Shown piece by piece: positions 5,402 to 37,891 of a stretch of DNA of 64,000 nucleotides. The first letter of the stretch is position 1. Each line of letters opens with the position of its first letter. This DNA is from a virus. Lineage: Duplodnaviria; Caudoviricetes. The translations under genes and the position numbers were made by a program. The notes under the pieces were generated by a model that did not search any database, had not been told where the DNA came from, and was given only the letters and a program-made list of their open reading frames with translations. Where the stretch lies: positions 1-64,000 of the IMG/VR virus record IMGVR_UViG_3300042470_001171. One strand, given 5' to 3'.

Positions 5402-5689
5402 ATGCTCTACCCCCTCGGCCTAACCGGCACCCTCTATCCCCTTGGCCTGCACCCTGGCCTGATCCTGGGGCTACGCCTGCTCAAGTGCATCCCCTGCATC
5501 CACCTGGATAGCCTCGCCCCTGCCCTGGACCTGCTAGCCCAGCACCCTAGCCTGGAACTGGCTAGCACTATCCCTAGCCTGGATCTGACCACCCTGGCCC
5601 CAGCCCTAGCGGTAGCGGCCATTATTGCAGGGTTGAATATTGGATCCATTGCGCCCACACTTAGCCTGGAGGATTGTGATTGTGACTGA
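5402..5689 (+). CDS. Hypothetical protein
   Basis: ORF in operon; Leu/Pro repeats. Confidence 0.45.
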   Translation: MLYPLGLTGTLYPLGLHPGLILGLRLLKCIPCIHLDSLAPALDLLAQHPSLELASTIPSLDLTTLAPALAVAAIIAGLNIGSIAPTLSLEDCDCD

Positions 5690-6116
5690 TGCTTTGAACG
5701 GAAAAACAGTATTGGTGGGAGCTGGCCTGGCCGGGCTAACCTGGGCATTTACCCGGCCCAGTGCGGATACCGTCACCAACTACACCAACGCCAGTATATC
5801 GGTGCGGTTCTTCGAGCTGGACAAGAAGTTTAAGCCGATCAGCACCACGCCAGCGCTGTCGCTCAGCATAGGCTCTGGCATCACCCGCAGCACCAATACC
5901 GCTAGCTCCCAGGCTGGCCTGTTCCAGGTGACAGCGGCCCAGCTAGGCACCCTGCTAGGCACCGCTGAGGCCAAGAACTTTGCCTATGTCTGGTACATTC
6001 AGCCAGCGGGCTATGAAGCTGTGCGGGCATTTGTGGGCGATGGCTATGATGGGCGGTTCCTGCTAGCCAAAGAGGGCTATGCAGGATCCCAGGACGGGGA
6101 GATCAAGGTGTCGTAG
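5682..6116 (+). CDS. Hypothetical protein, possibly baseplate-associated
   Basis: GTG start overlapping upstream stop, GGAGG upstream; beta-rich. Confidence 0.45.
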   Translation: MTDALNGKTVLVGAGLAGLTWAFTRPSADTVTNYTNASISVRFFELDKKFKPISTTPALSLSIGSGITRSTNTASSQAGLFQVTAAQLGTLLGTAEAKNFAYVWYIQPAGYEAVRAFVGDGYDGRFLLAKEGYAGSQDGEIKVS

Positions 6117-6343
6117 CAGCGTTGGCCACAGACATACTCACCCAATAACAGCGATCCCCAGCTAGCTGGTTGCTGACAGACCTGGCAAGACTCTGGCCGG
6201 TCCAGGCGGATCAAAACGTCATGGCCATAGTCAACCTCATCGGCCCCCAGCGGCCAGCCGGTTGGCTCTGGCGTATCCCCGGCTAGCTCGTCTAGCATAG
6301 TCCCTAGCCGGTCTAGCTCGTTCAGCATGGCCTGGAGGTCCAT
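6077..6343 (-). CDS. Hypothetical protein with CxxC...CxxxC
   Basis: TGATG coupling to upstream ORF. Confidence 0.5.
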   Translation of the reverse strand: MDLQAMLNELDRLGTMLDELAGDTPEPTGWPLGADEVDYGHDVLIRLDRPESCQVCQQPASWGSLLLGEYVCGQRCYDTLISPSWDPA

Positions 6344-6495
6344 CAGAACCTACCCGTGGCTACCAGCCAGGCCAGCACCGCTACAGCACCGATGGCCATG
6401 CCGGACAGCGTGAAGCGGATCTCGTGTTCAAAGACCTCGCGGCGGGCAATTTCATGGGCAATGGCCCGGACCTGCGCTTTGATGTCCTCGCTCAT
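6343..6495 (-). CDS. Small membrane protein (MSEDIK...)
   Basis: ATG at 6495 with GAGG; C-terminal hydrophobic helix; GGGCACCCT upstream. Confidence 0.5.
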   Translation of the reverse strand: MSEDIKAQVRAIAHEIARREVFEHEIRFTLSGMAIGAVAVLAWLVATGRF

Positions 6496-6544
6496 GGTGG
6501 ATCCCTCAGAGAATTTTTTATAGGGTGCCCAGGTTGGTGGTTGT

Positions 6545-6600
6545 GTGCTATACTCGGGGTAGCACATTGACAATTTGTGGTGACAGGTGACAGTGATGAA
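6545..6600 (+). promoter_or_regulatory. CRISPR leader A: extended -10 (TGTGCTATACT) and boxA-like GCACATTGACAA
   Basis: Same layout as leaders at 7649-7694, 18031-18082 and 23856-23907. Confidence 0.65.
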
Positions 6601-6740
6601 TCCCACTCCGGTGGGGGTTTCTCGACCACCGCCGCCTATATGGTGGACTTTGCCCCTCGCAAACACCTCCCCGCTTCGGTGGGGGTTTCTCGCTCTGACT
6701 GAGGCCTCAAAGCACACCCCACCACCGTGGGAGTCCTCAG
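6601..6740 (+). CRISPR. Mini-array A: 3 type I-E-like hairpin repeats, one 32-nt spacer and one short spacer
   Basis: CCCCAC-N4-GTGGGG plus GTTTCTCG handle; second repeat has TCGCAAACACCT extension. Confidence 0.8.
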
Positions 6741-7360
6741 CCAGCCTTAGCGATCCGCCATTGCTCGGCCAATGCGGCCATAAATTGCTCTGGATCCAGG
6801 CCCAGATCTACTGCCCTGGCCGCTAGCTCGGCTGCCGTGGCCGGGCTTAATTTTCCCTCAAGTTCGATCAGCTTTACCAGCGCCGTTGCTAGGCTACCAA
6901 TGGCCCGCAGGTCGCTGGTAGCCCGTGCATCACAGATCGACTGCACCACCTGCTCAATGGCTGTGCGCACATGCTCCAGGTTGGTCTTTTTGGTGCGGTA
7001 GCTGCCCAGGTCTGTCGCTGGCGGTGGTGGCGGTGCTGTCTTGGCCTTGTGGGGCACCTTTGCCGCCTCGCCTGGTGCATCCGCCATGGCTAGCTTTCTG
7101 GCCTGCCAGTCGCCTGCCTTGGCCCAGCCGCTGATCGTGGTATTGCCACAGCGGTCAAACCCTTCGCCCTTCAGCCGCCTGGATATTTCAGCCCATTGAG
7201 GCCCCAGCTCGCAGTACAACTCAAAGCCCCGTTCCTTGCAGGCTGGCGTAGCAGGCTGGCCGGAAGTCTTCACCACCTGCCGGTTGCCCCGCCTAGCACC
7301 AGGAGCTGGCTTGGGCGCATGCTTGGATCGTAGCTTTGGTGTAGGTTTCTTGGTTGCCAT
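6737..7360 (-). CDS. Putative terminase small subunit (HTH, Mu gp27/DUF1804-like)
   Basis: Basic N-terminus, FELY...EISRRL...TTISGWAKAGDW HTH pattern, helical C-terminus. Confidence 0.5.
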   Translation of the reverse strand: MATKKPTPKLRSKHAPKPAPGARRGNRQVVKTSGQPATPACKERGFELYCELGPQWAEISRRLKGEGFDRCGNTTISGWAKAGDWQARKLAMADAPGEAAKVPHKAKTAPPPPPATDLGSYRTKKTNLEHVRTAIEQVVQSICDARATSDLRAIGSLATALVKLIELEGKLSPATAAELAARAVDLGLDPEQFMAALAEQWRIAKAG

Positions 7361-7466
7361 GGATCCAGAATGCCCAGGCAACAAAAAACCCCAGCCGTGG
7401 CCGGGGTCGGAGTGGTGCATCTACAAAGCCTAATTTAACACGACTGGCTTATAGTTGGGTGTCAAA

Positions 7467-7648
7467 AGAAAAACCCCCACCAGTGTGGGGACTCGCCAGA
7501 GTCAAGAAGCACCCCCACCAGTATGGGGCGAGGGAGAGAACTCTGAAACATCCCCACCACTGTGGGGAAACATGCAACTATAGTTTGGATCCACCCCCAC
7601 CAAAATGGGGCTAGGTATTGTCATCGACACACCCCCACCAGCGTGGGG
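7467..7648 (-). CRISPR. Array B: 5 degenerate hairpin repeats with very short spacers (period 38-43 nt)
   Basis: Hairpins at 7475, 7513, 7552, 7595, 7633, each with a GT/AT-starting 8-nt handle on the minus strand. Confidence 0.75.
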
Positions 7649-7694
7649 CCACCGTCACCAAATTTTCAAGGTTCCTGTCCCCTACTATAGCACA
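7649..7694 (-). promoter_or_regulatory. CRISPR leader B: TGTGCTATAGT -10 and boxA GAACCTTGAAAA (7663-7674)
   Basis: Conserved among four arrays. Confidence 0.7.
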
Positions 7695-7705
7695 GTTAGC
7701 ACGGT

Positions 7706-8566
7706 TTAGCTAGCCGGTTCCAGTGAAACCACAACGCCAGCGGACTTGGTGGGAGTCAGCCTCAGCCAGACGCCGCCTAGGGACTTTGGCATGACGATCC
7801 GCTCCACCGCCCAGCCGTTGCCGCCCTGAAACTCCTCCTTGTAGGTGCCCGTCTGTACATGGTATCGGGGAGTTACCCGCACCTTGCCGGTTTCGATCAA
7901 CCGGTAGCAGGGGTGAGAAACGATGCTCCGCTCGTGATTGTGGCCATTGACGATCACATCAGCATCTGGTGCAATGCTGGCATACCGGCCACCGCCCATG
8001 GTGCCCTTGGTGACAATACCGCCCCAGGCCCCATGGTGGAAGAACAAGTTGCACCGCCGAACAGACTCGACGCCCTGACCCCGTTCCTTGTAGAACACAA
8101 ACCGAATCCAGCCCTGATAGCCCATGTGCTCGGTGATGGCCCCATGGCGGTCCCGCAGCTGCTGTACCACATTAGCCAGTGGGTCTATCTCCTGGTGGTT
8201 GATGATGGCTGTCTCATGGTTGCCGTTGCCCATCATCAGGATCTCCTGGCCGTAGGGTGCCAGAATGTCAGCGGACTCCTTGAATACCAAGTCGAAATAA
8301 TTGGCCCCCTGGTGCTCGGGGCGAATGCTGGCCTTGCTGCCGCGCCTGTCCCGCTTGCCCTGCATCAAGCACAGCACATCGCCAAAAAATAAGGCCCTGC
8401 CGTTGAGAGCCTTCATCTTTTCCAGGTGACTAAAAAATAGCTTGCGATCACATTTTGGGTTATCCAGGTGAATGTCGCTGGCCAGCAAAAAGTGATAGGC
8501 TTCCTCCCCGGTGTAGCGGATCCGGATTTCGAGGACTTCATCTGATAGTCGTCGCGTGGTTAGCAT
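7706..8566 (-). CDS. Calcineurin-like metallophosphoesterase
   Basis: SDIHLD, FGD, GNGNHE, HHG and GHNH motifs. Confidence 0.85.
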   Translation of the reverse strand: MLTTRRLSDEVLEIRIRYTGEEAYHFLLASDIHLDNPKCDRKLFFSHLEKMKALNGRALFFGDVLCLMQGKRDRRGSKASIRPEHQGANYFDLVFKESADILAPYGQEILMMGNGNHETAIINHQEIDPLANVVQQLRDRHGAITEHMGYQGWIRFVFYKERGQGVESVRRCNLFFHHGAWGGIVTKGTMGGGRYASIAPDADVIVNGHNHERSIVSHPCYRLIETGKVRVTPRYHVQTGTYKEEFQGGNGWAVERIVMPKSLGGVWLRLTPTKSAGVVVSLEPAS

Positions 8567-8603
8567 TTTGTTACAACCAGCACTATCTAAATAGTGCCCA
8601 AAA

Positions 8604-8631
8604 CAAAAACCCCAGCTTATAGCCGGGGTTT
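8604..8631. terminator. Intrinsic terminator hairpin
   Basis: AAAAACCCC...GGGGTTT stem with flanking A/T runs. Confidence 0.65.
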
Positions 8632-8649
8632 GGACGGCGCAAAAAAGGC

Positions 8650-8796
8650 TTACTTTTTGCGCTTTTTGTCTGCGTTTTCCGCTGCGGCAATGGCGATCAC
8701 AACGGCACCAGTTACGGCAAACAAAGCTGCATCAACTGGGCTGGCAATGCCTTGGCTGGCGGGCATGGGTAGATCGGCGGGTTGCATGGTGTTCAT
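8650..8796 (-). CDS. Small membrane protein (48 aa)
   Basis: CCACTTACAGAGGA leader before ATG; hydrophobic helix then basic tail. Confidence 0.55.
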   Translation of the reverse strand: MNTMQPADLPMPASQGIASPVDAALFAVTGAVVIAIAAAENADKKRKK

Positions 8797-8824
8797 GGTC
8801 TGTGGTCCTCTGTAAGTGGCCTGG

Positions 8825-9031
8825 TTAGTCTCCCCCCAGGGTGTTAAACGTGATCCGCTGGATGTCGCGGATCTTGACTTGGTTAGGCGATAGGGCGTGG
8901 ATCTGGGCTATTTGCAGCTGTGCAGCCGCCACAGCCATGCGAATATCTCCGCTAGCGATCTGGACAGTCGAACTGCCCTCCATCACCCCGCTTGCGTAAG
9001 CTTTCTGCCATTTAAAAACATAAGTCGCCAT
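8825..9031 (-). CDS. Hypothetical protein
   Basis: Leftward operon; GAGG upstream. Confidence 0.55.
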   Translation of the reverse strand: MATYVFKWQKAYASGVMEGSSTVQIASGDIRMAVAAAQLQIAQIHALSPNQVKIRDIQRITFNTLGGD

Positions 9032-9178
9032 ATCAATAAACCTCGTCTAGTTGTTGCTGTAGGGTCTCCTGCCAGCCCTGTTGCTGGCTTTGCTGTGCTT
9101 CCTGGCCTTGCTGCTGCTGTTGCCGTAGTTCCCGGCGTAGCTCGGCGGCCAGGGTATCGGCCAAAGACTTGCGTCGCT

Positions 9179-9385
9179 TCATGGCTCTTCCTCCAGCCGG
9201 GCTTGGTTCACCTTGGCCATTTCAGCAAACAGGGCAGCGGCTAAGTCACCCTGGAGGGCGTTGATACTGTTGTGCATCACGTTAGCCTCATCCATGGCGG
9301 ACTCCAGTTCACCCCGCCAGTAGGCCAAGTAGGCCAGCAGGCAGGCTAAGATCTCGGTGCGGGTAGGGTCAATGGGTAAGTTCAT
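9179..9385 (-). CDS. Hypothetical protein
   Basis: Leftward operon. Confidence 0.5.
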   Translation of the reverse strand: MNLPIDPTRTEILACLLAYLAYWRGELESAMDEANVMHNSINALQGDLAAALFAEMAKVNQARLEEEP

Positions 9386-9566
9386 GGTTATATCCCCAAA
9401 GATGGTAGGTTTCGGATCTGGGCTAGCACTAGCTCTAGTTCCTGCTGTGCATCCCCGTCTTCAGGGTGCCTAGCAATGATCTGGCGCATGTGGCTAGCTC
9501 TGGTATGCAGAAAAATGGATAGCTGCCCGGCCAGGCAGGGGCGTAGCCGGGCGGTGGTGGCGGCCA

Positions 9567-10202
9567 TTACTTTGAGCGGATCATTTGCTCTAGCTGGTCG
9601 CATTGCTCCGGCGTAAGCTGGTTGGGCGAAGTTGCGCCGAAGGTAGCCAGCATGGCTATCACTTCCTCGCGGCTAACGCCAAGGCTTTCCCGTATGTCCT
9701 GGATGCGTCGGTTTTGGTCCAGGGCGGCACCAGGGATAGTGTCAGCTTCGGTTTCGTCGAGCATCCCTAGCCCGCAGATCGACAGGGTAACCCGGCGCTT
9801 AGCTTTGGTCTCTGCCTTCATCAAGGCATTGGCCAACGCCTCACCAGAGAGGCCTTTGATGGGCACCACGCCGGTAGACTCATCTCGGCGGCCATAGGCG
9901 TTGGTGGCCCTAGCTAACACCACATAGCAGTCATCTACACGGGTACGCTCCACCAGCTCCACCGAAATGCCGTGGATGCTACGCAGTTGGTCGGTGGCGT
10001 CTTTCCGTGCGTACAAGGTTAGGCGGCCAGACAGTTTCAGATACTCGAAGGGCCTAGACAATGGGTTTAGGCCAACACTGCTACACAGAGCATTGTAATA
10101 GTTCATTCGCTCTGCTGGCGATAGTGCGGCCAAGTCCCCGTGGACTAGCACCTTTTCGAGGGTCTGGGCCTGGGCTTGAGGCTGGGCAATAATGTCAGTC
10201 AT
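9567..10202 (-). CDS. Phage ssDNA-annealing recombinase (RecT/Bet-like)
   Basis: GLNPLSRPFEY...LYARKDATDQLR...MKAETKAKRRVTLSICGLG; AGGAG RBS. Confidence 0.7.
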   Translation of the reverse strand: MTDIIAQPQAQAQTLEKVLVHGDLAALSPAERMNYYNALCSSVGLNPLSRPFEYLKLSGRLTLYARKDATDQLRSIHGISVELVERTRVDDCYVVLARATNAYGRRDESTGVVPIKGLSGEALANALMKAETKAKRRVTLSICGLGMLDETEADTIPGAALDQNRRIQDIRESLGVSREEVIAMLATFGATSPNQLTPEQCDQLEQMIRSK

Positions 10203-10241
10203 GGGTGGTTCTCCTAAGGGGCCCGGAGGCCCCAGCGTGGT

Positions 10242-10523
10242 TTAGAATTCGTCGTCAGCAAACGCTTCGGCCCGGACATCGGCGGGACACGATACGTCGC
10301 CCACCCTGGCCCCAGGGACTTCATCGGCGAAGATACCGGCTAGCTGAGTGGCTAGGAACACTTCACCACGGCCAGGAATGACCCGGACATGAAGGTTAAA
10401 CCATTCCCCGGAAGGGTAGATGACCTGGGCGACGTAAATTTTCACTCGGGGATCGTCGCTGATCGGCTCTTGGACTAGATCCAGCGCGGTGGGCTCGTAG
10501 CGTTCGATGGTAGTGGGATACAT
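10242..10523 (-). CDS. Hypothetical protein
   Basis: CCACTTACAGAGA leader. Confidence 0.6.
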   Translation of the reverse strand: MYPTTIERYEPTALDLVQEPISDDPRVKIYVAQVIYPSGEWFNLHVRVIPGRGEVFLATQLAGIFADEVPGARVGDVSCPADVRAEAFADDEF

Positions 10524-10594
10524 GGTGGTTCTCTGTAAGTGGTGTGGATGTGGCGGAACAGGAGGGGGCCAGCAAGTGCCAGCCCCAGGGGACT

Positions 10595-10903
10595 CTAGCC
10601 TAGGTGGCCCGGCTGAGGGGGACGGCCACCAGGGAACTGGTTCCGCTTGTCAGACTCAGCGCTAGCCACTACAGCGGTGCTGCGGCGGTTCGTGCAGGTG
10701 CCGTTCATGCACCGGGGGAATTGATCTCGGCTGGACTTGCTGAGTTGCTGGCTACCTTCCCGAGCACAGTCGGGATCCGAGCTGTAGCGCTCAGTCGGAC
10801 AGTGCCCGTCACCACGCAGTGCCACGGTGCTAGAGGCCAGAGAGGCGCCAGCGGGCAGGAACAGAGCAGCGGCCAGGACGGTTGCGGGGAAATGAAGTAA
10901 CAT
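10595..10903 (-). CDS. Hypothetical secreted Cys-containing protein
   Basis: Signal-peptide-like N-terminus; CCACTTAC leader. Confidence 0.5.
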   Translation of the reverse strand: MLLHFPATVLAAALFLPAGASLASSTVALRGDGHCPTERYSSDPDCAREGSQQLSKSSRDQFPRCMNGTCTNRRSTAVVASAESDKRNQFPGGRPPQPGHLG

Positions 10904-11184
10904 TAGGGAAGATCCTTTGTAAGTGGATTTAACTTAAGGGGCGAGTCGTTGGCGCGACGGACCCCTTTTCTCTGGGGTGACAGAACCCGGCTATTAGCTA
11001 GCGGTTGTTGGTTGCTGTCGATATTTCAATAGTAGGGCCTGGGCTTGGCATCTGTCAACTCATTAATAGCAATATTCTAATAGCTATCGCTTATAGGTAT
11101 CCCAAGAAAGCATCAGGTATTGTGCTACCCTGTTTTGGGAGATCTACGCGATAATTGGGAATGTCCAGCCAAGAGGAGATAACT

Positions 11185-11388
11185 ATGAAATCCCTAAGGG
11201 TGGCCTCCGGCCTCACTCAGGAGCAATTGGCGCGGAAGTTAGATATTTCCGTGTCTACCGTTCGCAATTGGGACGCTGGCAGATCGTTCCCTCACCTAAG
11301 CCCTGCAGCCATGGAAGCGCTAGCAGCAGCCCTGGGAACTGATCTGACGACTCTGGCAGCCGCCGAGCGAGCCCAGCGCAATGGCTAG
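11185..11388 (+). CDS. XRE-family HTH regulator (Cro-like)
   Basis: LRVASGLTQEQLARKLDISVSTVRNWDAG; GAGGAG RBS; at a divergence point. Confidence 0.85.
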   Translation: MKSLRVASGLTQEQLARKLDISVSTVRNWDAGRSFPHLSPAAMEALAAALGTDLTTLAAAERAQRNG

Positions 11389-11439
11389 AATGGCGGTGTT
11401 TTGTTGTTTTAGAACCCAACTAAAAGCCGCTGGCTATTT

Positions 11440-11527
11440 GCCCACAACAGTGGGCGTGTTTCGTGGGATCAAGGCTTTTCTGTGTCAAGAATGACGCATA
11501 CCACCCCACCGCCGTGGGGGTTATAAA
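11440..11527 (+). CRISPR. Two-repeat mini-array with one ~35-nt spacer downstream of the HTH gene
   Basis: GCCCAC-AACA-GTGGGC-GTGTTTCG ... CCCCAC-CGCC-GTGGGG-GT. Confidence 0.6.
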
Positions 11528-11573
11528 ACCCAACTCTAAGCCACAATCCACACATTTACAGAGAAAAACCACT

Positions 11574-11837
11574 ATGAAAGGCTGGACATTTATTCACAAC
11601 GGGAATGGCTACTGCCGTCCGGATCGGGAAGAGGTCGAAGAACTGCTTGCCGATCTAATCGAGAAAGACAAATTCTTTAAAAGGGAGTCAAAGTTTTCCT
11701 ACTGCGCCCCTGACGGCAGTCCTATCCAGTACGCCCAGGTGACGGTAGAGGAAGGCCACCTGATCAGCTACAAGGCAATTAAGCCACCCACCTCAAGAAC
11801 CCAACTAAAAGCCACCAGCCATCAGCCACACACTTAA
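11574..11837 (+). CDS. Hypothetical protein
   Basis: ATG after CACATTTACAGAGA leader. Confidence 0.55.
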   Translation: MKGWTFIHNGNGYCRPDREEVEELLADLIEKDKFFKRESKFSYCAPDGSPIQYAQVTVEEGHLISYKAIKPPTSRTQLKATSHQPHT

Positions 11838-11848
11838 AGACAACCGCC

Positions 11849-12448
11849 ATGCTGGCCAGACAACCCCTCGACTTCTATCCCACCCCCGGCCTGCTCACCT
11901 GGGCCTTGCTGGATAGCCATCGCTTTGTCCCCTGGCGCAACCAGGCCACCGTGCTGGAGCCCTGCAATGGCGAGGGTGCGATCAGCGATGTGCTGAAAGA
12001 ATCTGGCTTGTTCCGCCTGGTGGATACCGCCGACATTGATCCGGCCAAGACCAAGCCAGCAACCGCCATCGGTGCCACCAGCTTCACCATGGACGCCACC
12101 GATCCGCAAGCCTGGGCCCGGATGGCCCGCTACGACTGGGTGATCACGAACCCGCCCTACAACCAAGCCCCGGCGATCTTGCCATTGGCCTACGACAACT
12201 GCCGGGTGGGCATGGCCATGTTGTTGCGCCTCAGTTACCTGGAGCCCTGCAACAACCGGGCCCGCTGGCTGGCAGAACACCCGCCGGCCAAGCTGATCGT
12301 CTTTAACCCCCGGCCACGGTTCCGGGCGGATACAGTCGGCAGCGACTCGGTGACTAGCGCCTGGTTTATCTGGCACCGCTTCGGCAATAGCCAAGGGACT
12401 GAGCTTGAATTTTGTACTAACTGGAGAAACCATGGAACTGACAATTGA
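11849..12448 (+). CDS. Amino (N6-adenine/N4-cytosine) DNA methyltransferase
   Basis: DFYPTP, VLEPCNGEG (motif I), ITNPPY (motif IV). Confidence 0.8.
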   Translation: MLARQPLDFYPTPGLLTWALLDSHRFVPWRNQATVLEPCNGEGAISDVLKESGLFRLVDTADIDPAKTKPATAIGATSFTMDATDPQAWARMARYDWVITNPPYNQAPAILPLAYDNCRVGMAMLLRLSYLEPCNNRARWLAEHPPAKLIVFNPRPRFRADTVGSDSVTSAWFIWHRFGNSQGTELEFCTNWRNHGTDN

Positions 12449-13565
12449 CGCCAAAGGCCTAGCCGCTGTCCTGGCCCTGCCTAACCGGGCGGTGCCAAAC
12501 AGGCCCAGCAACCCTGTACTAACTAACCTGCTGCTCAATGCTGAGGGGGATACCCTGGCGGTGACAGGCAGTGACCTGGGAGCGGTGACCATCACCGCCA
12601 AGGCCAAGGCCAGCATTGCCGTAGAGGGCGAGATCCTGCTACCGGCCAAGCTACTCACCGATATGGTGGGGCGGATGGACGGGAACCTAGCGCTTAACTG
12701 GGATCCAGAAACCAGCCAGGCCACCATCAGCACTCTGGGAGGCAAGTATTCCCTATCCGGCCAGCCCGGGGAGGACTACCCGCTGATCGAGCGGGCAGAG
12801 GGCCAGCAGCTAACCATGGAGGCCAGCACCTTGGCCAGGGCACTAGAGTCCACGCTAGTCACCGCTAGCGATGACGAGAGTAAGCAGATCCTTTGTGGCG
12901 TTCACCTGCAACCCGTTGCCGATGGCCTCGAGGTTGCCTCCACCGATGGCCATCGCCTCAGCGTGTTCCCCGTGGCCCAGGAGGGCATTGAAGCATTTAC
13001 CCCTGTCACACTGCCTAGCAAAGGCCTGAAGGCCCTGAGTGGGCACCTGGGCAAGGCTGAGGGGATGGTGACGGTAACGCTAGACAACACCATCGCCACC
13101 TTTGACCTGGGTGGCCTGGTATTTACCACCCGGCTACTGGAGGGCCAGTATCCAGAGTACCGCCGACTCATCCCCCAGGCCTTTGTAGTGGAGACCCTGA
13201 TCAACCGGCAAGCCTGGATCGATGCCCTGAGCCGGATCATGGTGGTGGCTAGCCAAAAGCAAGGCATCATCAGGCACCAGTGGAATGACCAGGGACAGCT
13301 AGTGCTAGAAGCTGACGTACAAGGCTCTAGCGGGCGGGAGCTGGTTGACTGTGAGGCCAGCGAAGGCCAGGGTGAGGACGTGCTGGGCAAAGCTAAGAAT
13401 CCCATGGCCTTTAACGGCGACTACCTGCTGGATGGCCTCAAGGCCTTCGGCAGCGAGCAGGTGATCCTGCACACCAACACCCCGACCAGCCCAGCCACGA
13501 TCACCGCCCCCGGCAGCAGCCAGGTGTACCTGGTGATGCCAGTACAAATCAGGGACCAGATTTAG
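12432..13565 (+). CDS. dnaN: DNA polymerase III beta sliding clamp
   Basis: PVLTNLLL, GEDYP, STDGHRL, RLLEGQYPEY, YLVMPVQ; ~377 aa. Confidence 0.93.
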   Translation: MELTIDAKGLAAVLALPNRAVPNRPSNPVLTNLLLNAEGDTLAVTGSDLGAVTITAKAKASIAVEGEILLPAKLLTDMVGRMDGNLALNWDPETSQATISTLGGKYSLSGQPGEDYPLIERAEGQQLTMEASTLARALESTLVTASDDESKQILCGVHLQPVADGLEVASTDGHRLSVFPVAQEGIEAFTPVTLPSKGLKALSGHLGKAEGMVTVTLDNTIATFDLGGLVFTTRLLEGQYPEYRRLIPQAFVVETLINRQAWIDALSRIMVVASQKQGIIRHQWNDQGQLVLEADVQGSSGRELVDCEASEGQGEDVLGKAKNPMAFNGDYLLDGLKAFGSEQVILHTNTPTSPATITAPGSSQVYLVMPVQIRDQI

Positions 13566-14177: not shown

Positions 14178-14210
14178 ATGAGACGACAGATCCCACCACC
14201 GTGGGAGTGC

Positions 14211-17350: not shown

Positions 17351-18030
17351 GCGGAAACTCCCACGATGGTGGGGTATAGGATAGGTACGGGCTGGAGGAA
17401 CGCCCACTAGAGTGGGGAATGCCAAGCCCAGTTTCACGCTGGAGCGATAGGGGCAAGACTCACCCCCACCAAAGTGGGGAGGTGTTTGCGAGGTGACGGG
17501 TCAGGCTAGCAAACTGGCCCTAACCGAGAAACCCCCACCGGAGTGGGGAGGTGTTTGCGAGTTAAGGGTGCTGGCGCGGTGCCTGACACTGACGAAAGGG
17601 AAAAACCCCCACCGAAGCGGGGAGGTGTTTGCGAATGCCGAGTCAATCGTGGTGGGCCTAACAGCTACCCCGGAGAAACCCCCACCGAAGCGGGGAGGTG
17701 TTTGCGAGCAGTGGGATCGGCACATTCAACGTCGGAGCGGTGGTCGATCAACCCCCACCGGAGTGGGGAAGTGTTTACCAGGCTGTTGTAAACGGGTTTC
17801 CGGCACATAGAAAAACCCCCACGAGGGTGGGGATACTGTGTTTCAGCCACCTCAAGGGCCAGGGGCGTGATAGGATAAACCCCCACCGAAGTGGGGAGGT
17901 GTTTGCGCTTGGGCACCGTGGCGCAATACGGCTTTTTCTCGGAGAAACCCCCACCAAAGCGGGGAGGTGTTTGCGAGAGGGTGCCCTATGGGCTGTCACT
18001 ATCGGCAGAAAAACCCCCACCGGAGTGGGT
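17351..18030 (-). CRISPR. Array C: 11 hairpin repeats; consensus TCGCAAACACCTCCCCACTTCGGTGGGGGTTTCTC(G/C); mostly 28-38 nt spacers
   Basis: Repeat anchors at 17462, 17531, 17605, 17678, 17751, 17815, 17879, 17947, 18013, plus degenerate hairpins near 17359 and 17402; unique spacers. Confidence 0.92.
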
Positions 18031-18082
18031 CCACCGTCACCTACCACCAAATTTTCAAAGTTCTTGCCCCCACTATAGCACA
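18031..18082 (-). promoter_or_regulatory. CRISPR leader C: TGTGCTATAGT -10, boxA-like GAACTTTGAAAA, GGTGACGGTGG
   Basis: Conserved among four arrays. Confidence 0.75.
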
Positions 18083-18150
18083 AAGCTGGCCAGTTGGTGC
18101 AGGCAAAGCAAACCCCCGGCGAGGGCCAGGGGTGGCAGGCAGGCTAGGGG

Positions 18151-19320: not shown

Positions 19321-19423
19321 TGGCACACTCCCACCAAGTGGGAAGTAGGGGATACCGACATAGGATCCACTCCCACGCTGGTGGGGCCTCTTCATGCAGT
19401 GATCCACTCCCACCGCAGTGGGT
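19321..19423 (-). CRISPR. Array D: 3 hairpins with short spacers immediately downstream of cas5
   Basis: CCCAC-N3/4-GTGGGA-GTG... x3. Confidence 0.7.
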
Positions 19424-19429
19424 ATCGCG

Positions 19430-19876
19430 CTAGGCCTCCTCCCGGGCAACAGCCCAGATCGGGCCAGACGGGACACAATTACGCCGTCCTAGGTATAGCT
19501 GGAATTTAGGCCGGGCCAGCGCCTTGGCAATGGTGCGGATCTGCTGCAAGTCACCCCGCAGGGTAACGGTAGAACTGAAGTCGCTCAGGTAGTGCCGGGT
19601 GGTGATGGCATTGCGGCCTGGGGCCCCGTCATAGGTGATAGCATCGCGGATGGTGTGGAAGTCCTCCAACACTCCGCCATGGCTTGTCTCGCCTATCTCC
19701 ACCTGCAGCCCGTCCAGTTCCGGCGCTGACTGGCCTCGACGTATCCCCAGGGCAGCACACAACATGCCGCGGATCGCCGACTCAGTTGGGGCATCCTCCG
19801 TCAGTCGTTGCTGCAGCCGTGGCCCGGTGCCATAGGCAGCCATGGGGCCTGCTAGCTTCAGGACTAGCCTAGGCAT
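19430..19876 (-). CDS. cas5e: Type I-E Cas5 (short, 148 aa)
   Basis: LKLAGPMAAYG...R.T...PTESAIRGMLCAALG...DFHT...RHYLSD...LYLGRRNCVPS. Confidence 0.9.
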   Translation of the reverse strand: MPRLVLKLAGPMAAYGTGPRLQQRLTEDAPTESAIRGMLCAALGIRRGQSAPELDGLQVEIGETSHGGVLEDFHTIRDAITYDGAPGRNAITTRHYLSDFSSTVTLRGDLQQIRTIAKALARPKFQLYLGRRNCVPSGPIWAVAREEA

Positions 19877-21122
19877 AGGCCACCTCCTTGCCAGCACCCA
19901 TGGCTACTTGCAGGGCCCCATCAATGGCCCCGTCCAGGGGCTGGCCGAACCAGCCTGGCTGGGTAGTCACTTCAGCTTTGTACAGCGACTTGTCGCCGTA
20001 GATGACGTTTAGCCGGTCCTGGTACTGGCGCAGCGCATCAGCGGCCTGGTGCGGGATACCCTGGGCTAGGAAGTCGTCGTCGGTGGTGCAGCTATTGATT
20101 GACACATGGAATGCCGGTGCCAAGGTGTAAGGCTGAGCCGCTGTCACCCGCACCTGCACATAGTCTGGCCGAGTTAGATGGGCATGGCTGCGCACATAGC
20201 CAGTCGGCAGGGTAGTGCAGAATGCTGTCAGGAATCCCCGGGCAAACTGCTGGGCCAGCTCGGGGTCGCCGATCAAGCGGGCCAGCTCAGTGACATTCAG
20301 GTTGGCATAGCGGTAGTAGACGGGCGAGATGATGGGCAGCTCCCCCAGGTGGCCAGCGCCAGACTTAGATTCCTCATCCAAGGGTTCAATGTCATCTTCG
20401 GCGGTGAAAAAGTCCGGCTCACCAATCACTTGGCCCATGCCCTTGACATTGGTGATACCAAAGGAATTAACCGAGATCGCATCCGCCACTTGGGTGCAGC
20501 CATCGACGCTGGCCTCAGTCAGGCTAGCCATCATCCGGCCAAACAGTGCGACATCCCCTGGTACTTGCTGGCCTAGCTTGCCCAGAGCTTTGCGGATGCC
20601 CTGCAAATCCCTGGCGCTAGGTTTTTCAGGCGCTGGAGCCTTCTTGGGGTTTATATCCAAAGCCTCCTGGTAACGCTGGGCCCGCTCCAGCATATCTCCC
20701 AGTAGCACCGAATGATCGGCGGCCAGAGCGGCAATGGTGTCCAGCTCATGCTCAGACAGGAATAACAGGTTGCCGCTATCCTCCAGCATGGCCGGGATCA
20801 GGTTGTCGTCTTTGAGGTTGAACAAGCCCAACAAGAACCGAGCCACCATCAAGTTATCAGCGTCACCGCCCAAAAAGCCAGTGCAGCAGCAGGATAGGCG
20901 ACTGGCCAGGGCGACGTCATGGCGACGGCTGCGGAAAGCCAAGGCCTTGCGGTCAACGGCCATCCATTCCCCATAGTGTTGCCGGGCGGCCCGTTTCTGG
21001 GACTGGCTGGAGAGCCGGGCCCGCCAGCTACCACCGTATTGGATCTTTTTGGGTGCCCCGGACTTGTCCCGGTTGGCATTGCTGGGCGGTAAAGCGTGGA
21101 TCAGGTGCACTTCGATAAACAT
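19869..21122 (-). CDS. cas7e: Type I-E Cas7 (Cse4/CasC)
   Basis: PSNANRDKSGAPK...GG...RARLSSQSQKR; DVALFGRM; DFFTAEDD; GAGHLG...YYRYA. Confidence 0.95.
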   Translation of the reverse strand: MFIEVHLIHALPPSNANRDKSGAPKKIQYGGSWRARLSSQSQKRAARQHYGEWMAVDRKALAFRSRRHDVALASRLSCCCTGFLGGDADNLMVARFLLGLFNLKDDNLIPAMLEDSGNLLFLSEHELDTIAALAADHSVLLGDMLERAQRYQEALDINPKKAPAPEKPSARDLQGIRKALGKLGQQVPGDVALFGRMMASLTEASVDGCTQVADAISVNSFGITNVKGMGQVIGEPDFFTAEDDIEPLDEESKSGAGHLGELPIISPVYYRYANLNVTELARLIGDPELAQQFARGFLTAFCTTLPTGYVRSHAHLTRPDYVQVRVTAAQPYTLAPAFHVSINSCTTDDDFLAQGIPHQAADALRQYQDRLNVIYGDKSLYKAEVTTQPGWFGQPLDGAIDGALQVAMGAGKEVAYA

Positions 21123-21150
21123 AGGGTTCCTCCCTTAAGGACTGGGCCTG

Positions 21151-21288
21151 GTGGCCACCCCCACCGCCGTGGGGCCTTTTTGGTTGTCGATCCACACCCA
21201 CCGGAGTAGGTTGTATGACGTGTCTGTGCAGGAGACACCCCCACCGGAGTGGGGCCACTGCTCAGCCCTGAGACACCCCCACCAATGC
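21151..21288 (-). CRISPR. Array E: 3 hairpins plus a partial one in the cas6-cas7 junction
   Basis: Hairpins at 21159, 21196, 21239 and a half repeat at 21277 inside the cas6 3' end. Confidence 0.75.
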
Positions 21289-21876
21289 TGGCGCGGGCTC
21301 AGGCGTAGTCACCGCCGCCACCGGCAGCAACGACAGCAGGCCGCAGCCGTACGCCTTTTCCCGGCCAATGCCGTTGACCATGGCATCAGCTAGCCGCTGG
21401 CTATGGGTCACCGTCAGATACCCGTCCACTACCGATACCTCAATGGGGAATGAACGAGTGTAATGCTCACGGCGCACATGATCATGGTGTTTTTGCACTC
21501 GCACCTGGCGCACCTCGAAGGTAGCACCTAGCCGATCCTCCCTGGCGGCCAGCCACTCAGCGGCAGGCACCGGATAGCGCCGACACCGGTCATCCCGGTT
21601 ACTTTGGGCCACAGAGTTGAGCCCCAGGCGGAAGCGGTAACGCTCCCCAACATTAAGCAGGTTATGCCTAAACTCCAGCTTCACCTGGGCCTCATAGGCT
21701 TTAGGCCACTTGGGCTTTTCTACCGACTGCACCAGGATGGATCCGCCGTCAACCCGGAACAATGCCCCGACTTGGCTGCGGGGGTCTGGGCCCAGATCGT
21801 CAGGAAAGCCCGCCATCACATAGCGGTGCAGGCTTCCATGGCCATCTGGCCGGGCAAAACGAGAAAGGTATAGCAT
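21262..21876 (-). CDS. cas6e: Type I-E Cas6 (Cse3/CasE)
   Basis: YLSR, HRYVMAGFP, LFRVD, LVQS...P.W, YRFRL, C-terminal GIGREKAYGCGLL G-loop. Confidence 0.93.
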   Translation of the reverse strand: MLYLSRFARPDGHGSLHRYVMAGFPDDLGPDPRSQVGALFRVDGGSILVQSVEKPKWPKAYEAQVKLEFRHNLLNVGERYRFRLGLNSVAQSNRDDRCRRYPVPAAEWLAAREDRLGATFEVRQVRVQKHHDHVRREHYTRSFPIEVSVVDGYLTVTHSQRLADAMVNGIGREKAYGCGLLSLLPVAAVTTPEPAPALVGVSQG

Positions 21877-22520
21877 TATCGTGATCCTCCGTAAACGGTT
21901 CTGTAATTGGCTTGCCGCAGCCAGTCCACCGCAGCAGTCTGGCTGGACAAAGTAAATGTGTTGCTATCGAACCGCACCACTTGCAGCTCGACGCCCAGGC
22001 GGCCCTGGACTAGCTGGGCACCCCGGGCCTGACGTTGGCCACCTACGATCAGGCGGTGCAGAAAAGCTTGGTCTTCGGCGGCAATAGGGCCATCCTGAAA
22101 ACTGCGCTTGATGCGCCCCACATGATCGCAAATGTCTGCCTTGGCCCGCTCGAAGCTGATCGGCACCCCAGCAATGCAATAAGTTGGTCGGGGCACCGCT
22201 GGCACTATCTCCCAGGTGAAGCTGGACAGCTCCCCGCTATCGCGGTGGGTCCGTAAGCGTTCCACCGTGGACTTAGCCGGTAGGCCAGTCTCATGGAATA
22301 GCACCAGGTGCTTTTTGCTGGGCCGAGTCCAGCGTCGTTGGTAACTGTTGCCCTGGCCGATGGCCTCCCGCACCTGGTCGGCAGGCTTTACCTCCACCAG
22401 CGTGTCGTACTGAGCACCGTCGACGACTATGTCAATGCGGTCCTGACCTACGGGCACCTCAGTGCGGCCACCATGGCGGACGGCCCAAGCGTCCCGAATA
22501 ATGTCATGGGGGAAGTTCAT
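21876..22520 (-). CDS. PD-(D/E)xK nuclease-fold protein coupled to cas6
   Basis: EV...RIDIVV...LVEVK...AIGQ..SY pattern; TAATG overlap with cas6 start. Confidence 0.7.
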   Translation of the reverse strand: MNFPHDIIRDAWAVRHGGRTEVPVGQDRIDIVVDGAQYDTLVEVKPADQVREAIGQGNSYQRRWTRPSKKHLVLFHETGLPAKSTVERLRTHRDSGELSSFTWEIVPAVPRPTYCIAGVPISFERAKADICDHVGRIKRSFQDGPIAAEDQAFLHRLIVGGQRQARGAQLVQGRLGVELQVVRFDSNTFTLSSQTAAVDWLRQANYRTVYGGSR

Positions 22521-22590
22521 CTGTGGTTTTCCAACCCAATTAATGGCTTATAGTTGGATGGTAACACTTTTTTGTTATCTGGAGAACTAC

Positions 22591-23409
22591 ATGACCGACA
22601 TCTTTACCTACCCCTGCATTGCCACCCCCCAGGGCACCGCCAGCCTAGCCGATCTGCTGGCCAGCCCTGAAGCCTACACCGACATCAGCGAACCCCACCT
22701 CACCCGCCAGGCGTTCCTACGCCTGCTGCTAGCCATGGCCAGTGTCACCATGAAAAACCAGCCCCTATCAGGCGATATGCCGCTGTGGAACAACTGGGGC
22801 GAGCCAGGCTTCCTGCAGGTAACAGGCCTGCCTGAGGCCTCCACCCGTAGCCCCCAAGCGATCATGGATTTGATGGATGGCTCCGGCCCCGCCCTGGTGC
22901 CCCGCAACTTCCTAGCCGCCCCAACCGAGGCCGACCTGATCAAGGCGCTGATCACCGCCTACTTCTGCGATAGGCCCGGGCTCAAGGCTCAGGTGAAGGG
23001 CCTGCCAGTATCTGGGCCCAAGCCTAGCCACATGGGCCAGCTAGTGGCCTGGAAGTGGGGCGATACCCTAGCAGACTTCCTGGAGCTCAACGGCGTGGCA
23101 ACGTCCTCCTGGGTGCCCTGGTGGAAGCGCCCCATCGACTACGGCGAGACGCTGGACGCTGACAACCCCGATCTGGTGCAATACCTCATGTGGCCATGGC
23201 GGCGACTCCAGGCATTCCCTGGCGGCATTGTCGTGGCCGCTGGCGTGAAATGCACCGTAGCCGATCCCTGGGCAATTGCCCGGGCCAGCCTGCGCCACCT
23301 GAGCAAAGGGCTAGCCGAGTTCGAGTTGACCGGGCCTGCCAGGGTGTCGGGCATGGTGCTGAACCAGGCTAGCCCGCTGGCGTGGAAGGAATGGGTGATA
23401 GCTAGGTAG
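22591..23409 (+). CDS. cas8e: Shortened type I-E large subunit Cas8e/Cse1-like (272 aa), divergent from cas6/7/5
   Basis: SLADLL...AFLRLLLA, FLQV, GDTLADFLELN, WPWRRL motifs of the Cse1 N-terminal domain; GGAG RBS. Confidence 0.65.
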   Translation: MTDIFTYPCIATPQGTASLADLLASPEAYTDISEPHLTRQAFLRLLLAMASVTMKNQPLSGDMPLWNNWGEPGFLQVTGLPEASTRSPQAIMDLMDGSGPALVPRNFLAAPTEADLIKALITAYFCDRPGLKAQVKGLPVSGPKPSHMGQLVAWKWGDTLADFLELNGVATSSWVPWWKRPIDYGETLDADNPDLVQYLMWPWRRLQAFPGGIVVAAGVKCTVADPWAIARASLRHLSKGLAEFELTGPARVSGMVLNQASPLAWKEWVIAR

Positions 23410-23487
23410 GTCTGCAGGGGGTGTTGACAAGTCGATTCACCCCCTGTATATTGAAATTGTTGAACCACTTACACCGAGGACAAAGCT

Positions 23488-23778
23488 ATGCTCACGAATT
23501 ACAATCCTTCTGAAATAGAAGAATTGAACAAAAAATTGGCCCCTGAGCAATGGGAGCCGATCACGTTTCAAGTCATAGACGAGGACAATAACGTCCACGA
23601 AAACATCCCTGGGAAATCGCTCTGGGTAGATCGCCGCTATGAAGTGGTGACATACCCATCAGGGCGAAAAGGCGTCCAGCTTCTAGGCGGCTGCCTAGAA
23701 ACGGTTCTTCTTCGAGAGCCGGAAACTGAAGAGGGCAAGAAGCAAGCCCTGCGGCTCAACATGCGGGTTGAAGTTTAG
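23488..23778 (+). CDS. Small cassette protein
   Basis: TTGACA/TATATT promoter, CCACTTACACCGAGGA leader, terminator 23806-23831. Confidence 0.7.
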   Translation: MLTNYNPSEIEELNKKLAPEQWEPITFQVIDEDNNVHENIPGKSLWVDRRYEVVTYPSGRKGVQLLGGCLETVLLREPETEEGKKQALRLNMRVEV

Positions 23779-23855
23779 ATCGCCAACCCCCCACCCCTCC
23801 CGCAGACCCCGGCCCCATGGCTGGGGTTTTTGCTTGGGCAGCTATGGCCAGCCTT

Positions 23856-23907
23856 GTGCTATAGTGTTGGCAGGAACCTTGACAACTTGGTGGTAGGTGA
23901 CGGTGGA
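23856..23907 (+). promoter_or_regulatory. CRISPR leader F: TGTGCTATAGT -10, boxA-like GAACCTTGACAA, GGTGACGGTGG
   Basis: Conserved among four arrays. Confidence 0.75.
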
Positions 23908-24492
23908 TCCCACTTCGGTGGGGGTTTTTCGTACCCCCGACAGGGCCTTAACGGCGCGTGGCAAACAGCTCCCCACTTTGGTGGGGGTTTTTCTTTTTTC
24001 TAGCCACGATCAACGGGCTGAGCGACTCGCAAACACCGCCCCACTTCGGTGGGGGTTTCTCCCGTGTGACAGCGCATTCCTTTTCATCCCCGCCTTGGTG
24101 GGGGTGTGTCGATTTGCGGTTAACTCATGCACCCCACCCCCGTGGGAGTCTGTCTGCCATTGCCCGGGCCAGCCAGCTAGCCCCACCACTGTGGGGGTGG
24201 GTCAAGCGGATCCCGTCAGCCCCACAGCGTGGGGGTTTCTCCTGTTACCGGTCATGCCCACCATCGTGGGAGTCTGTCCCTACAAAAATCAGCCCATTCC
24301 GGTGGGAGTCTGTCACCCTGGCTCAGCTACCTAGCCCCACCAGCGTGGGGGTGTCTCGGCTGATTTTGAGGCGGGCGTGGCGGTATCGGTCACCTAGCCC
24401 CACCAGCGTGGGGGTGTCTCGCCTTCGCCTCACGATCCCCACCAGCGTGGGAGTGGATCTTGACAGCCCTTAGCCCACCCCGTGGGAGTCTA
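23908..24492 (+). CRISPR. Array F: about 13 hairpin repeats; two tagged long spacers, then mostly short spacers
   Basis: CCCCAC-N3/4-GTGGG(G/A)-GT recurring at irregular ~36-68 nt spacing. Confidence 0.85.
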
Positions 24493-24634
24493 TATGTACT
24501 ACTTAAATACACCATGTATTCGTTTGCCTCCAAGGAAATTGTATCCGCAACTTTTCAAACCTGCACACCGCAAGGGTTTAGCGCCTTACCTCTAAAAGAT
24601 AATAGGCATTAATTCCCCCAGGCCATTTTTTAGC

Positions 24635-25600: not shown

Positions 25601-25680
25601 TGGCACACTCCCACCACAGTGGGATCCGCCTGCAGCAGTCCAGCGACACACCTCCACGACACACCCCCACCGCAGCGGGG
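25601..25680 (-). CRISPR. Two-repeat mini-array directly after the ATPase stop codon
   Basis: CCCCGC-TGCG-GTGGGG-GTGTGTCG, 32-nt interval, TCCCAC-TGTG-GTGGGA-GTGTGCCA. Confidence 0.65.
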
Positions 25681-28551: not shown

Positions 28552-28618
28552 CCGCTCACCCCCACAATGGTGGGGCAATTAAAGCGCTTCAGCAGGATCC
28601 ACCCCCACTGGCGTGGGG
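28552..28618 (-). CRISPR. Two-repeat mini-array inside the Tra-like operon
   Basis: CCCCAC-GCCA-GTGGGG-GTGGATCC, 19-nt interval, CCCCAC-CATT-GTGGGG-GTG. Confidence 0.7.
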
Positions 28619-37651: not shown

Positions 37652-37891
37652 CCCCACGGGTGTGGGGGTGAGTCTTGCGACTCTTGAGGCCCACTGCGGT
37701 GGGGGTGTCTCGACTTGGGGAAAGGTGCCCCACCAAGTGGGGGTGAGTCGAGATGGCGGGGAGGCCCACTGCGGTGGGGGTGAGTCGGTTTAGCTCCTGT
37801 GCCCCACTAGGTGGGGGTGACTCCTACAGGGTTATGGTGTCCCACGGGGTGGGGGTGGCTCAGTAGCCTTTGAGGCCCCACGGGGTGGGGG
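37652..37891 (+). CRISPR. Array H: 7 hairpin repeats with 12-15 nt intervals, right after the replication operon
   Basis: (C/G)CCCAC-N3/4-GTGGGG-GTG at ~36-38 nt period with unique intervening sequence. Confidence 0.8.

Follow-up and report, generated by a model that had tools for sequence, protein, structure and literature searches.

A reduced type I-E Cascade with a linked candidate PD-(D/E)xK nuclease and no recognisable Cas3 or Cas11 in a lake phage

Introduction

What could cut the target of a type I-E CRISPR (clusters of regularly interspaced short palindromic repeats) effector, the Cascade, when no Cas3 is encoded beside it? This question is raised by a locus in the IMG/VR virus record IMGVR_UViG_3300042470_001171, of which we analysed bases 1–64000 (hereafter, the window) out of 72,813 bp. 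Four tightly packed genes on the minus strand, which encode a predicted 214-aa PD-(D/E)xK nuclease, Cas6e, Cas7e and Cas5e in this order, face a divergent cas8e gene on the plus strand. We describe the locus as a new variant of type I-E, whose mechanism we infer, with the chances that the nuclease is the effector evenly balanced.

The record is 79% complete (CheckV) and comes from a tailed lake phage, as judged from a tape measure protein (phrog_4704, 2e-50), a Mu F-like head-morphogenesis protein, a DnaB helicase and recombinases. An initial annotation, made from the sequence of the window, had assigned the DNA to a phage, which the tape-measure and head-morphogenesis matches bear out, and the open reading frames (ORFs) of the cas genes and the nuclease were found where it had placed them. 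It had also named cas6e, cas7e and a cas5e of 148 aa on the minus strand, and curated hidden Markov models (HMMs) confirm all three.

Results

Effector subunits of type I-E

Cas6e matches PF08798 (1.6e-31), TIGR01907 (52.2 bits, cut-off 45.2) and the PADLOC Cas6e model (3.3e-30), the last much better than the type IV Cas6 model (1.6e-14). Cas7e matches PF09344 (1.3e-67) and exceeds the NCBI I-E equivalog cut-off of TIGR01869 (184.2 versus 178.05 bits), and the PADLOC models that match it are Cas7e models only. An assignment to type IV was rejected on these Cas7 and Cas6 matches. Cas5e matches TIGR01868 (6.1e-31, 107.9 bits, cut-off 68.95) over model positions 3–159 of 230 only and thus lacks the C-terminal third of a canonical Cas5e. 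The Cas5 proteins of its relatives have 144–148 aa and start at the equivalent of the ATG at 19876. At 148–155 aa, depending on the start codon, the protein gave only Cas5 matches and no HNH insertion in Pfam, TIGRFAM and PADLOC, on which grounds a I-E Cas5-HNH Cascade was rejected.

The divergent gene encodes a 272-aa protein that has no direct Pfam match itself. Its family (n = 13) shows 38–96% identity and lengths of 220–290 aa, except for one 170-aa member with 62% query coverage, and six of the 13 members match the Pfam Cse1 family (PF09481; best, 6.5e-13). The AlphaFold model built from the family alignment has a predicted local distance difference test (pLDDT) score of 59.5 and a predicted template modelling (pTM) score of 0.71. 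The top 23 Foldseek matches of this model are all Cse1 (E down to 5e-6), and VIA-align returned only Cse1 structures (Z 17.2, root-mean-square deviation (rmsd) 3.8, 260 residues aligned). Model residues 1–272 span residues 1–367 of E. coli Cse1, 6–362 of T. thermophilus CasA, and 19–397 of T. fusca Cse1 in the Cascade entries 5u07 and 6c66. Because the full model aligns only to N-terminal residues of Cse1, the modelled protein corresponds to the N-terminal domain of Cse1, with the C-terminal four-helix bundle absent. The fold alignment thereby agrees with the initial annotation of a divergent cas8e-like gene without the Cas8 C-terminal region. In solved Cascades, this bundle adjoins Cse2.

Type I-E components that are missing

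Six-frame HMM searches were run on the whole 72,813-bp record and on related records. The record itself contains no match to the Cas3 core (TIGR01587), the Cas3 HD domain (PF18019), Cse2 (PF09485) or Cas1 (PF01867) at E ≤ 1, and none to Cas2e (PF09707) at E ≤ 0.1. Three records of related phages, one of 77.5 kb, one of 29.3 kb and one of 74.2 kb that has direct terminal repeats, likewise gave no Cas3 core, Cse2, Cas1 or Cas2e. When a cyanobacterial metagenome-assembled genome (MAG) is included, PF09485 has no match at E ≤ 0.1 in the four related records, and Cas1 and Cas2e are each found in 0 of 5 records. TIGR01587 gave only sub-threshold helicase matches in the MAG, located elsewhere in that genome. 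The absence of cas3, cse2, cas1 and cas2, noted at the outset for the window, therefore holds for the whole record and the three related phages, and the remainder of the contig adds neither cas3 nor cse2 at E ≤ 1.

A 5.6-kb metagenome contig carrying a distant relative of the locus (L021) has the order array-cas5-cas7-cas6-nuclease / cas8-array with no spare ORF. Because it is bounded by two arrays, there is no room for further genes. These results support the assignment of the effector, by its sequence, as a reduced I-E Cascade without Cas3, Cas11, Cas1 and Cas2. A CRISPR-associated transposon (CAST) was rejected because none of the three phage records searched matched TniQ (PF06527) at E ≤ 0.1; TnsB and TnsC were not searched for.

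The first gene of the operon

Only 13 relatives of the 214-aa protein emerged when 1.84 billion representatives were scanned in full with HMMER. In the resulting 14-sequence alignment (25–91% identity to the query), D10, E21, D30, E43-V-K45, G55-Q56, S59-Y60, H92 and Y114 are invariant, and the L021 homologue shows the corresponding motif residues. The AlphaFold2 model (pLDDT 91.1, pTM 0.84) has helix 5–16, strands 19–24, 27–33 and 39–46, helix 47–63 and strand 68–75, that is, the alpha-beta-beta-beta-alpha-beta core with D...(D/E)xK that characterises the PD-(D/E)xK superfamily. The best VIA-align match of residues 1–110 is NucS/EndoMS (2vld_B; Z 10.0, rmsd 2.4, 93 aligned), followed by AF1548, Can1, CdiA-CT toxins, Can2, Card1, SfsA, McrC and many restriction enzymes. 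The best Foldseek match is SfsA (E 2.9e-3). Sub-threshold Pfam matches of the 14 members are to PD-(D/E)xK families only: SfsA (6/14), HSDR_N_2 (2/14), HSDR_N (2/14) and YhcG_C (1/14). A PDB sequence search with the nuclease profile gave chance-level matches only, a metagenome scan with a nuclease alignment found nothing, and PHROGs and PADLOC hold no family for either the nuclease or the short Cas8. These data support a PD-(D/E)xK nuclease by fold, putatively metal-dependent. Both the ID..EVK..AIGQ..Y motif and the restriction-endonuclease-type assignment made for this gene in the initial annotation thus stand, the former as a conserved motif in the alignment and the latter by fold.

Residues ~108–210 form a separate alpha/beta C-terminal domain that resembles the nuclear magnetic resonance structure 2k0m (Z 7.2, 89 aligned; Foldseek probability 1.00, target TM 0.58), an entry of DUF3223, the DCL family linked to rRNA maturation. 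An ESM Atlas search with this domain gave no usable match. Cas11 is a helical bundle, whereas this domain is mixed alpha/beta with no helical bundle, and none of the 14 family members has a VRR_NUC or Cse2 Pfam match. No Cys is found among the invariant columns of the 14 sequences, which thus share no conserved cluster like the four Cys of Cas4. Cas4 was therefore rejected despite the QxxxY motif, also on the absence of Cas1 and Cas2. In a 3,763-aa public-library protein (P0043), the nuclease domain was matched in six separate stretches (E 3.7e-10); it seems to be a giant polypeptide in which the domain recurs.

Linkage of the nuclease and Cascade

The nuclease stop codon overlaps the cas6 start codon in TAATG, with GGAGGA just upstream; direct reading of the sequence verifies the overlap reported earlier, and the nuclease gene is, on this sequence signature, translationally coupled to cas6. 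Linkage was assessed in ten loci by tblastn, for which the five proteins and, in addition, nine distant homologues of the nuclease served as queries, and the order cas8 <-> nuclease-cas6-cas7-cas5 was judged as far as each contig extends. L007 was left out of the count because its contig ends inside cas7. The nuclease lies directly upstream of cas6 in eight of the nine assessable loci, and the divergent arrangement of cas8 and the nuclease operon is kept in all eight (L005, L006, L018, L019 and L021–L024). Cas8 identity over these loci is 41–98%. The close relatives are L005, L006, L018 and L019. L021, L022 and L023 have a Cas8 of 48–55% identity and a nuclease of ~26%, and L024 (Cas8, 41%) adjoins ParA/ParB genes on a 109-kb contig. 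Linkage of the nuclease to cas genes in relatives, on which the initial annotation had made its proposal depend, therefore extends down to ~26% identity. All five ORFs are intact in each locus that holds them.

In six of the nine distant nuclease homologues, the C-terminus reads P-x-x-(V/L)GV(S/C/A)(R/P), the sequence obtained by translating through a repeat, CCCAC-N4-GTGGGGGTGTCTCG. Because they end in a translated repeat, these distant homologues also abut such repeats. The ninth assessable locus, L010, lies on a 116-kb contig of the cyanobacterial MAG and has a colinear cas8-cas6-cas7-cas5 without the nuclease; a search with the query found no nuclease homologue anywhere in this MAG. The L010 Cascade (5575–13080) is downstream of a 3′-phosphoadenosine-5′-phosphosulfate (PAPS)-reductase-like gene with weak BrxP and DndC matches and of a methyltransferase gene; the former recalls the CysH-like partner of type IV-B. 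In the hairpins of L010, the loops are 3 nt long and the stems vary in a compensatory manner (CTCCAA/TTGGAG and CCCCGC/GCGGGG).

Arrays and repeats

The repeats of the family consist of a CCCCAC/GTGGGG stem with a 4-nt loop, followed by a conserved GTNNNTC tail. This hairpin is of the I-E type, as in the Thermus I-E repeat. In the distant relatives L021 and L023, the repeat is regular (28–29 nt; GTCTT-CCCCAC-ATGC-GTGGGG-GTGGGTC) with a 6-bp stem, a 4-nt loop and an 8-nt 5′ handle. In both loci, the region downstream of cas5 contains at least 13 copies, and L021 has a further 13 downstream of its cas8. The gaps between hairpins are mostly 46–48 nt there, with a period of ~63 nt and diverse spacers of 32–35 nt; in seven sequences taken together, 101 gaps measure ≤100 nt, and 38 of these are 46–48 nt long. 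L021 and L023 have four consecutive trailer-side spacers in common, and their leader-side spacers differ, a pattern that, read from the two sequences, is one of polarised acquisition. Canonical arrays with leader-side turnover in distant relatives indicate a live system, which argues, at the sequence level, for interference instead of a pure regulator.

The window keeps the hairpin and tail, with a repeat of 36 nt or with irregular units. The long repeat (CTCGCAAACACCT-CCCCAC-N4-GTGGGG-GTTTCTC; 47–58 nt between hairpins) is used by array 1 on the minus strand (17356–18040) and, on the plus strand, by the units with which array 2 opens (23908–24054), and occurs in only five other IMG/VR contigs. 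Array 2 has three such units followed by irregular short units; beyond the first units, as in several other clusters, hairpins are 22–33 nt apart. A terminator-like hairpin and a conserved leader with TGCTATAGT come before each window array. Of the array 1 spacers, the last, at the trailer end, is the only one common to the window and L006, and L006 and L007 share another spacer. Gaps in the window cluster at ~22–23, 27–28, 33, 47–48, 52–53 and 57–58 nt, in steps of ~5 nt based on few numbers; known Cascades lead one to expect 6 nt per Cas7.

Hairpins outside the arrays

The window has 35 CCCAC-N4-GTGGG sites (0.19 expected), in intergenic clusters over its first 38 kb. Sense hairpins occupy the cas6-cas7 gap, follow cas5 and occur at ~10 other intergenic sites. 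Those in the cas6-cas7 gap recur in L005 and L006, and those directly after cas5 in L005, L006 and L007. The 3′ end of cas6e itself runs into a degenerate repeat hairpin, with a hairpin-like copy at 21266–21291. In the pairing count, 100% of cells are paired, a percentage given by construction because paired hairpins were chosen, and there are five double changes. The oddities of this phage suggest that processing by Cas6, or autoregulation, is superimposed on an immune function, as far as sequence can indicate. Regulatory roles of stand-alone repeats are known (bioRxiv 10.1101/2023.03.03.530964).

Several further observations concern these elements. A micro-spacer at 24156–24177 is kept in four related phages and agrees with the coding strand of cas8 (23272–23293) in 20 of 22 positions, and L006 likewise has a 20/22 match; this may reflect autoregulation or a duplication relic. 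The cas8 ORF of L021 contains an in-frame repeat hairpin (4550–4572) that encodes PHMRGGGS, and in L024 an array of seven repeats (6857–7236) separates cas7 from cas5. Two of the distant clusters (7475–7648 and 6601–6684) have their own array-type leader, and that at 37652–37890 comprises five strict hairpins and two weaker ones within longer gaps, with gaps of ~21–60 nt.

Array turnover and spacer targets

The locus was found in 19 lake-water metagenome runs from 2017–2025, each with at least half of the sampled words. In one DNA run and in two RNA libraries, contigs show extra or replaced 34–37-nt units between repeats, one of them at the leader end, a hint of ongoing gain or loss of spacers. 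Population variants of the array also touch 17480–17532 of the window. Contigs of the RNA libraries X11 and X19 (one study) and X20 extend over the cas genes and arrays, including 23902–24510 (array 2), although contigs are no proof of transcription and their scant coverage of cas8 carries no weight.

Array 1 spacers gave one chance-level match among 50,697 GenBank phage records, and only chance-level matches among 401 cyanobacterial genomes (best per-genome E 0.0019). Five loci were kept from the cyanobacterial matches, and the two checked for arrays, L027 and L029, had none. Exact 24–26-mers of three spacers had 0 matches each in IMG/VR, 77 extracted spacers matched only themselves and shared arrays among all local loci, and the window units had no self-target in their own phage genome besides repeat matches.

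Layout of the locus

The positions of the features are listed in Table 1. Promoters are inferred from the sequence to lie within the 70-bp divergent region.

Table 1. Features of the phage locus, in window coordinates unless stated otherwise
Feature	Position	Strand	Details
Predicted nuclease, 214 aa	21876..22520	-	First operon gene; PD-(D/E)xK domain and alpha/beta domain
cas6e, 204 aa, CRISPR RNA (crRNA) endoribonuclease	21262..21876	-	PF08798, TIGR01907, PADLOC
cas6-cas7 intergenic repeat hairpins, sense	21151..21257	-	21159-21174, 21239-21254, weaker one between
cas7e, 417 aa, backbone subunit	19869..21122	-	PF09344, TIGR01869, PADLOC
Short cas5e, 148 aa from ATG (19876)	19430..19876	-	155 aa if GTG at 19897
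Repeat hairpins directly 3′ of cas5	19321..19429	-	19329-19343, 19371-19386, 19409-19422
Divergent intergenic region, 70 bp, nuclease operon versus cas8	22521..22590		From ORF coordinates
Short cas8e, 272 aa from ATG	22591..23409	+	Cse1 N-terminal domain only, by model
Terminator-like hairpin, leader and array 2	23810..24452	+	Extended -10 TGCTATAGT in leader
Array 1 and leader (18040-18135)	17356..18135	-	8-9 units, 36-nt repeat, 48-58 nt between hairpins
Cas6-type hairpin clusters far from cas genes	6601-6732, 7475-7648, 11440-11519, 14191-14206		Intergenic; CCCCAC-N3-4-GTGGGG-GTNNNTC
Further clusters of the same motif	25609-25680, 28560-28618, 37652-37890; record 72267-72321		Intergenic

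Discussion

The locus shares with canonical I-E systems (E. coli, T. thermophilus and T. fusca) homologous Cas7e, Cas5e, Cas6e and the Cse1 N-terminal domain, the CCCCAC/GTGGGG hairpin with a tail of ~8 nt and, in relatives, 29-nt repeats with a ~63-nt period. Unlike them, it has no Cas3, Cse2/Cas11, Cas1 or Cas2, its Cse1 and Cas5e lack their C-terminal parts, and it has an extra PD-(D/E)xK gene, divergent arrays on both sides and 36-nt or irregular repeats in the window. It resembles the I-E Cas5-HNH and I-F Cas8-HNH systems (Altae-Tran 2023, PMC10910872; PDB 8yb6, 8zlu) in being Cas3-less with another nuclease instead, and the Cse1 of these complexes is among the best fold matches of the short Cas8 (Z 16–17). 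The HNH Cascades retain Cas11 and carry HNH as a fused part of Cas5 or Cas8 (PMC10910872), whereas the phage locus has a separate PD-(D/E)xK protein, a bare 148-aa Cas5 and neither Cas11 nor the Cse1 C-terminal domain. The same source mentions I-E systems in which a VRR-NUC nuclease, also PD-(D/E)xK, is fused to Cas11 (PMC10910872); they are alike in combining a nuclease of this superfamily with a I-E effector. The protein described here differs in having no VRR_NUC or Cse2 Pfam match and an alpha/beta C-terminal domain, with the fold comparison covering the listed families only.

Type I-F2, which has no Cas8 and no Cas11 (PMC12956352), and type IV are likewise minimal class 1 effectors of mobile elements without a small subunit. 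I-F2 still uses Cas3, and type IV has Csf-family subunits with DinG- or CysH-like partners, whereas the families here are those of I-E. The Streptomyces I-E CAST retains cas3 (bioRxiv 10.1101/2024.11.13.623437) and has no relation to this locus. In the literature as far as accessible to us, we found no report of a I-E Cascade that has a truncated Cse1, lacks both Cas11 and Cas3 and is accompanied by a stand-alone PD-(D/E)xK protein, and the supplement of PMC10910872 (188 modules) might list one. Further findings are the canonical arrays and polarised turnover of the distant relatives, the nuclease-free form of L010, the two-domain fold of the nuclease, the repeat read-through at the C-termini of its homologues and the population variants of spacers.

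We propose that the system derives from type I-E by reduction, is carried by mobile elements and uses the PD-(D/E)xK nuclease as a substitute for Cas3, a proposal that we consider about equally likely to be right or wrong. Gene content, folds, conserved motif, conserved synteny and live arrays were observed; complex formation, DNA targeting, a protospacer-adjacent motif (PAM), cleavage and the nuclease as interference effector would follow by analogy, and the steps are drawn from knowledge of the families. Cas6e would cleave the transcribed arrays at the base of the CCCCAC-N4-GTGGGG hairpin, on its 3′ side, the short Cas5e would cap the GUNNNUC 5′ handle, Cas7e would coat the spacer as a filament, and the Cse1 N-terminal domain at the foot would read the PAM and open the duplex. 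Without the Cas11 belly and the C-terminal bundle of Cse1, such a belly-less Cascade would have lost the usual docking surface of Cas3. DNA would then be cut by the stand-alone 214-aa protein, recruited to or activated at the R-loop. As precedents, Cas11 is reported to be dispensable for silencing and plasmid interference by E. coli I-E (PMC12235044), and Cas3-less Cascades cut with an HNH domain (PMC10910872). The wider proposal of a subtype-level I-E offshoot of lake phages and plasmid-like elements, in which a free PD-(D/E)xK nuclease replaced Cas3, Cas11 and the C-terminal parts of Cse1 and Cas5 were lost, spacers are gained without an own Cas1-Cas2 and, in this phage lineage, hairpins have spread for transcript processing, is conceivable, with the balance tilted against it.

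Several points weigh against the nuclease as Cas3 substitute. The confidence of the Cas8 model is low (pLDDT 59.5). The gene absences are HMM-based, in records that are 38–79% complete (CheckV), and a very divergent small helical subunit could escape HMMs. PD-(D/E)xK with QxxxY is also the pattern of Cas4/RecB, which has an adaptation role in CRISPR systems, and the C-terminal domain of the nuclease is without an assigned role. L010 indicates that the Cascade core can persist without the nuclease. The link between nuclease and Cascade is drawn from synteny, conservation and fold only. No protospacer was found for any spacer, so the target, the PAM and DNA targeting are hypothetical. Many window units have ~15–26 nt from the handle to the next stem, and such micro-spacers are short for R-loop-based cleavage, fit regulation better and thus hint at other or additional roles.

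The micro-spacers, including the one that matches cas8, look regulatory and would suit an effector that only binds, silencing or blocking its targets, with the nuclease co-transcribed for recombination, degradation of host DNA or processing of the phage's own DNA. Cas3-less type I and type IV binding systems are established (PMC11656645; PMC11519345), with type IV-A, CAST Cascades and the Cas3-free E. coli Cascade as analogues, and L010 retains a Cascade without the nuclease. On the other side, the nuclease-cas6 synteny holds in eight of nine assessable loci, with Cas7 identities of 41–48% among the distant loci, and across backbones (a tailed phage in the window, a ParA/ParB neighbourhood in L024), the two genes appear translationally coupled, and distant nuclease homologues abut repeats. 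Such a fixed operon position is not expected of a passenger gene, and we regard binding without cleavage as unlikely, though it deserves consideration. If interference proceeded by binding, the nuclease could alternatively serve adaptation in the manner of Cas4, trimming prespacers for a host or unknown integrase. Its RecB/Cas4-type E..D..ExK..QxxxY motif and the turnover of arrays in the absence of encoded Cas1 and Cas2 speak for such a role. The conserved Cys cluster is missing, however, the four phage records and the MAG hold no Cas1-Cas2 partner, and the best folds are NucS, AF1548 and Can1/Can2-type, with no Cas4/RecB chain among the 50 best matches listed, which makes this reading very improbable.

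Marginally less improbable is a primary role in RNA processing or control of phage expression, in which Cas6e would cut ~50 hairpins in 3′ untranslated regions and the cas operon, and Cascade and the nuclease would act on these RNAs instead of foreign DNA. The excess of CCCAC-N4-GTGGG sites, the conserved positions of hairpins between cas6 and cas7 and after cas5, the repeat inside the L021 cas8 ORF, the array between cas7 and cas5 in L024 and the presumed DUF3223 likeness of the nuclease C-terminal domain all point in this direction. The ordinary arrays of L021 and L023, with 32–35-nt spacers and leader-side turnover, are nevertheless a signature of immunity, and the two roles are mutually compatible. 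The missing genes, the truncated Cas8 and Cas5 and the degenerate window repeats might even be read as a functionless, decaying I-E remnant. This is hardly credible given five intact ORFs, a conserved short Cas8 family, invariant catalytic residues, arrays that turn over, and recurrence of the locus in lake-water runs over several years with contigs in RNA libraries.

If the nuclease is the effector, the system would be a third independent route by which a Cascade replaced Cas3, after the HNH fusions, and the first to rely on a restriction-type enzyme that is a separate protein. A natural I-E-type effector would then need neither Cas11 nor the C-terminal domain of Cse1, and RNA-guided DNA cutting would be compact, with five proteins totalling ~1,255 aa by ORF lengths compared with ~2,300 aa for E. 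coli Cascade and Cas3. The locus also raises the question of how phage arrays turn over without Cas1-Cas2, and its solitary hairpins make the use of Cas6 by a phage on its own messages testable.

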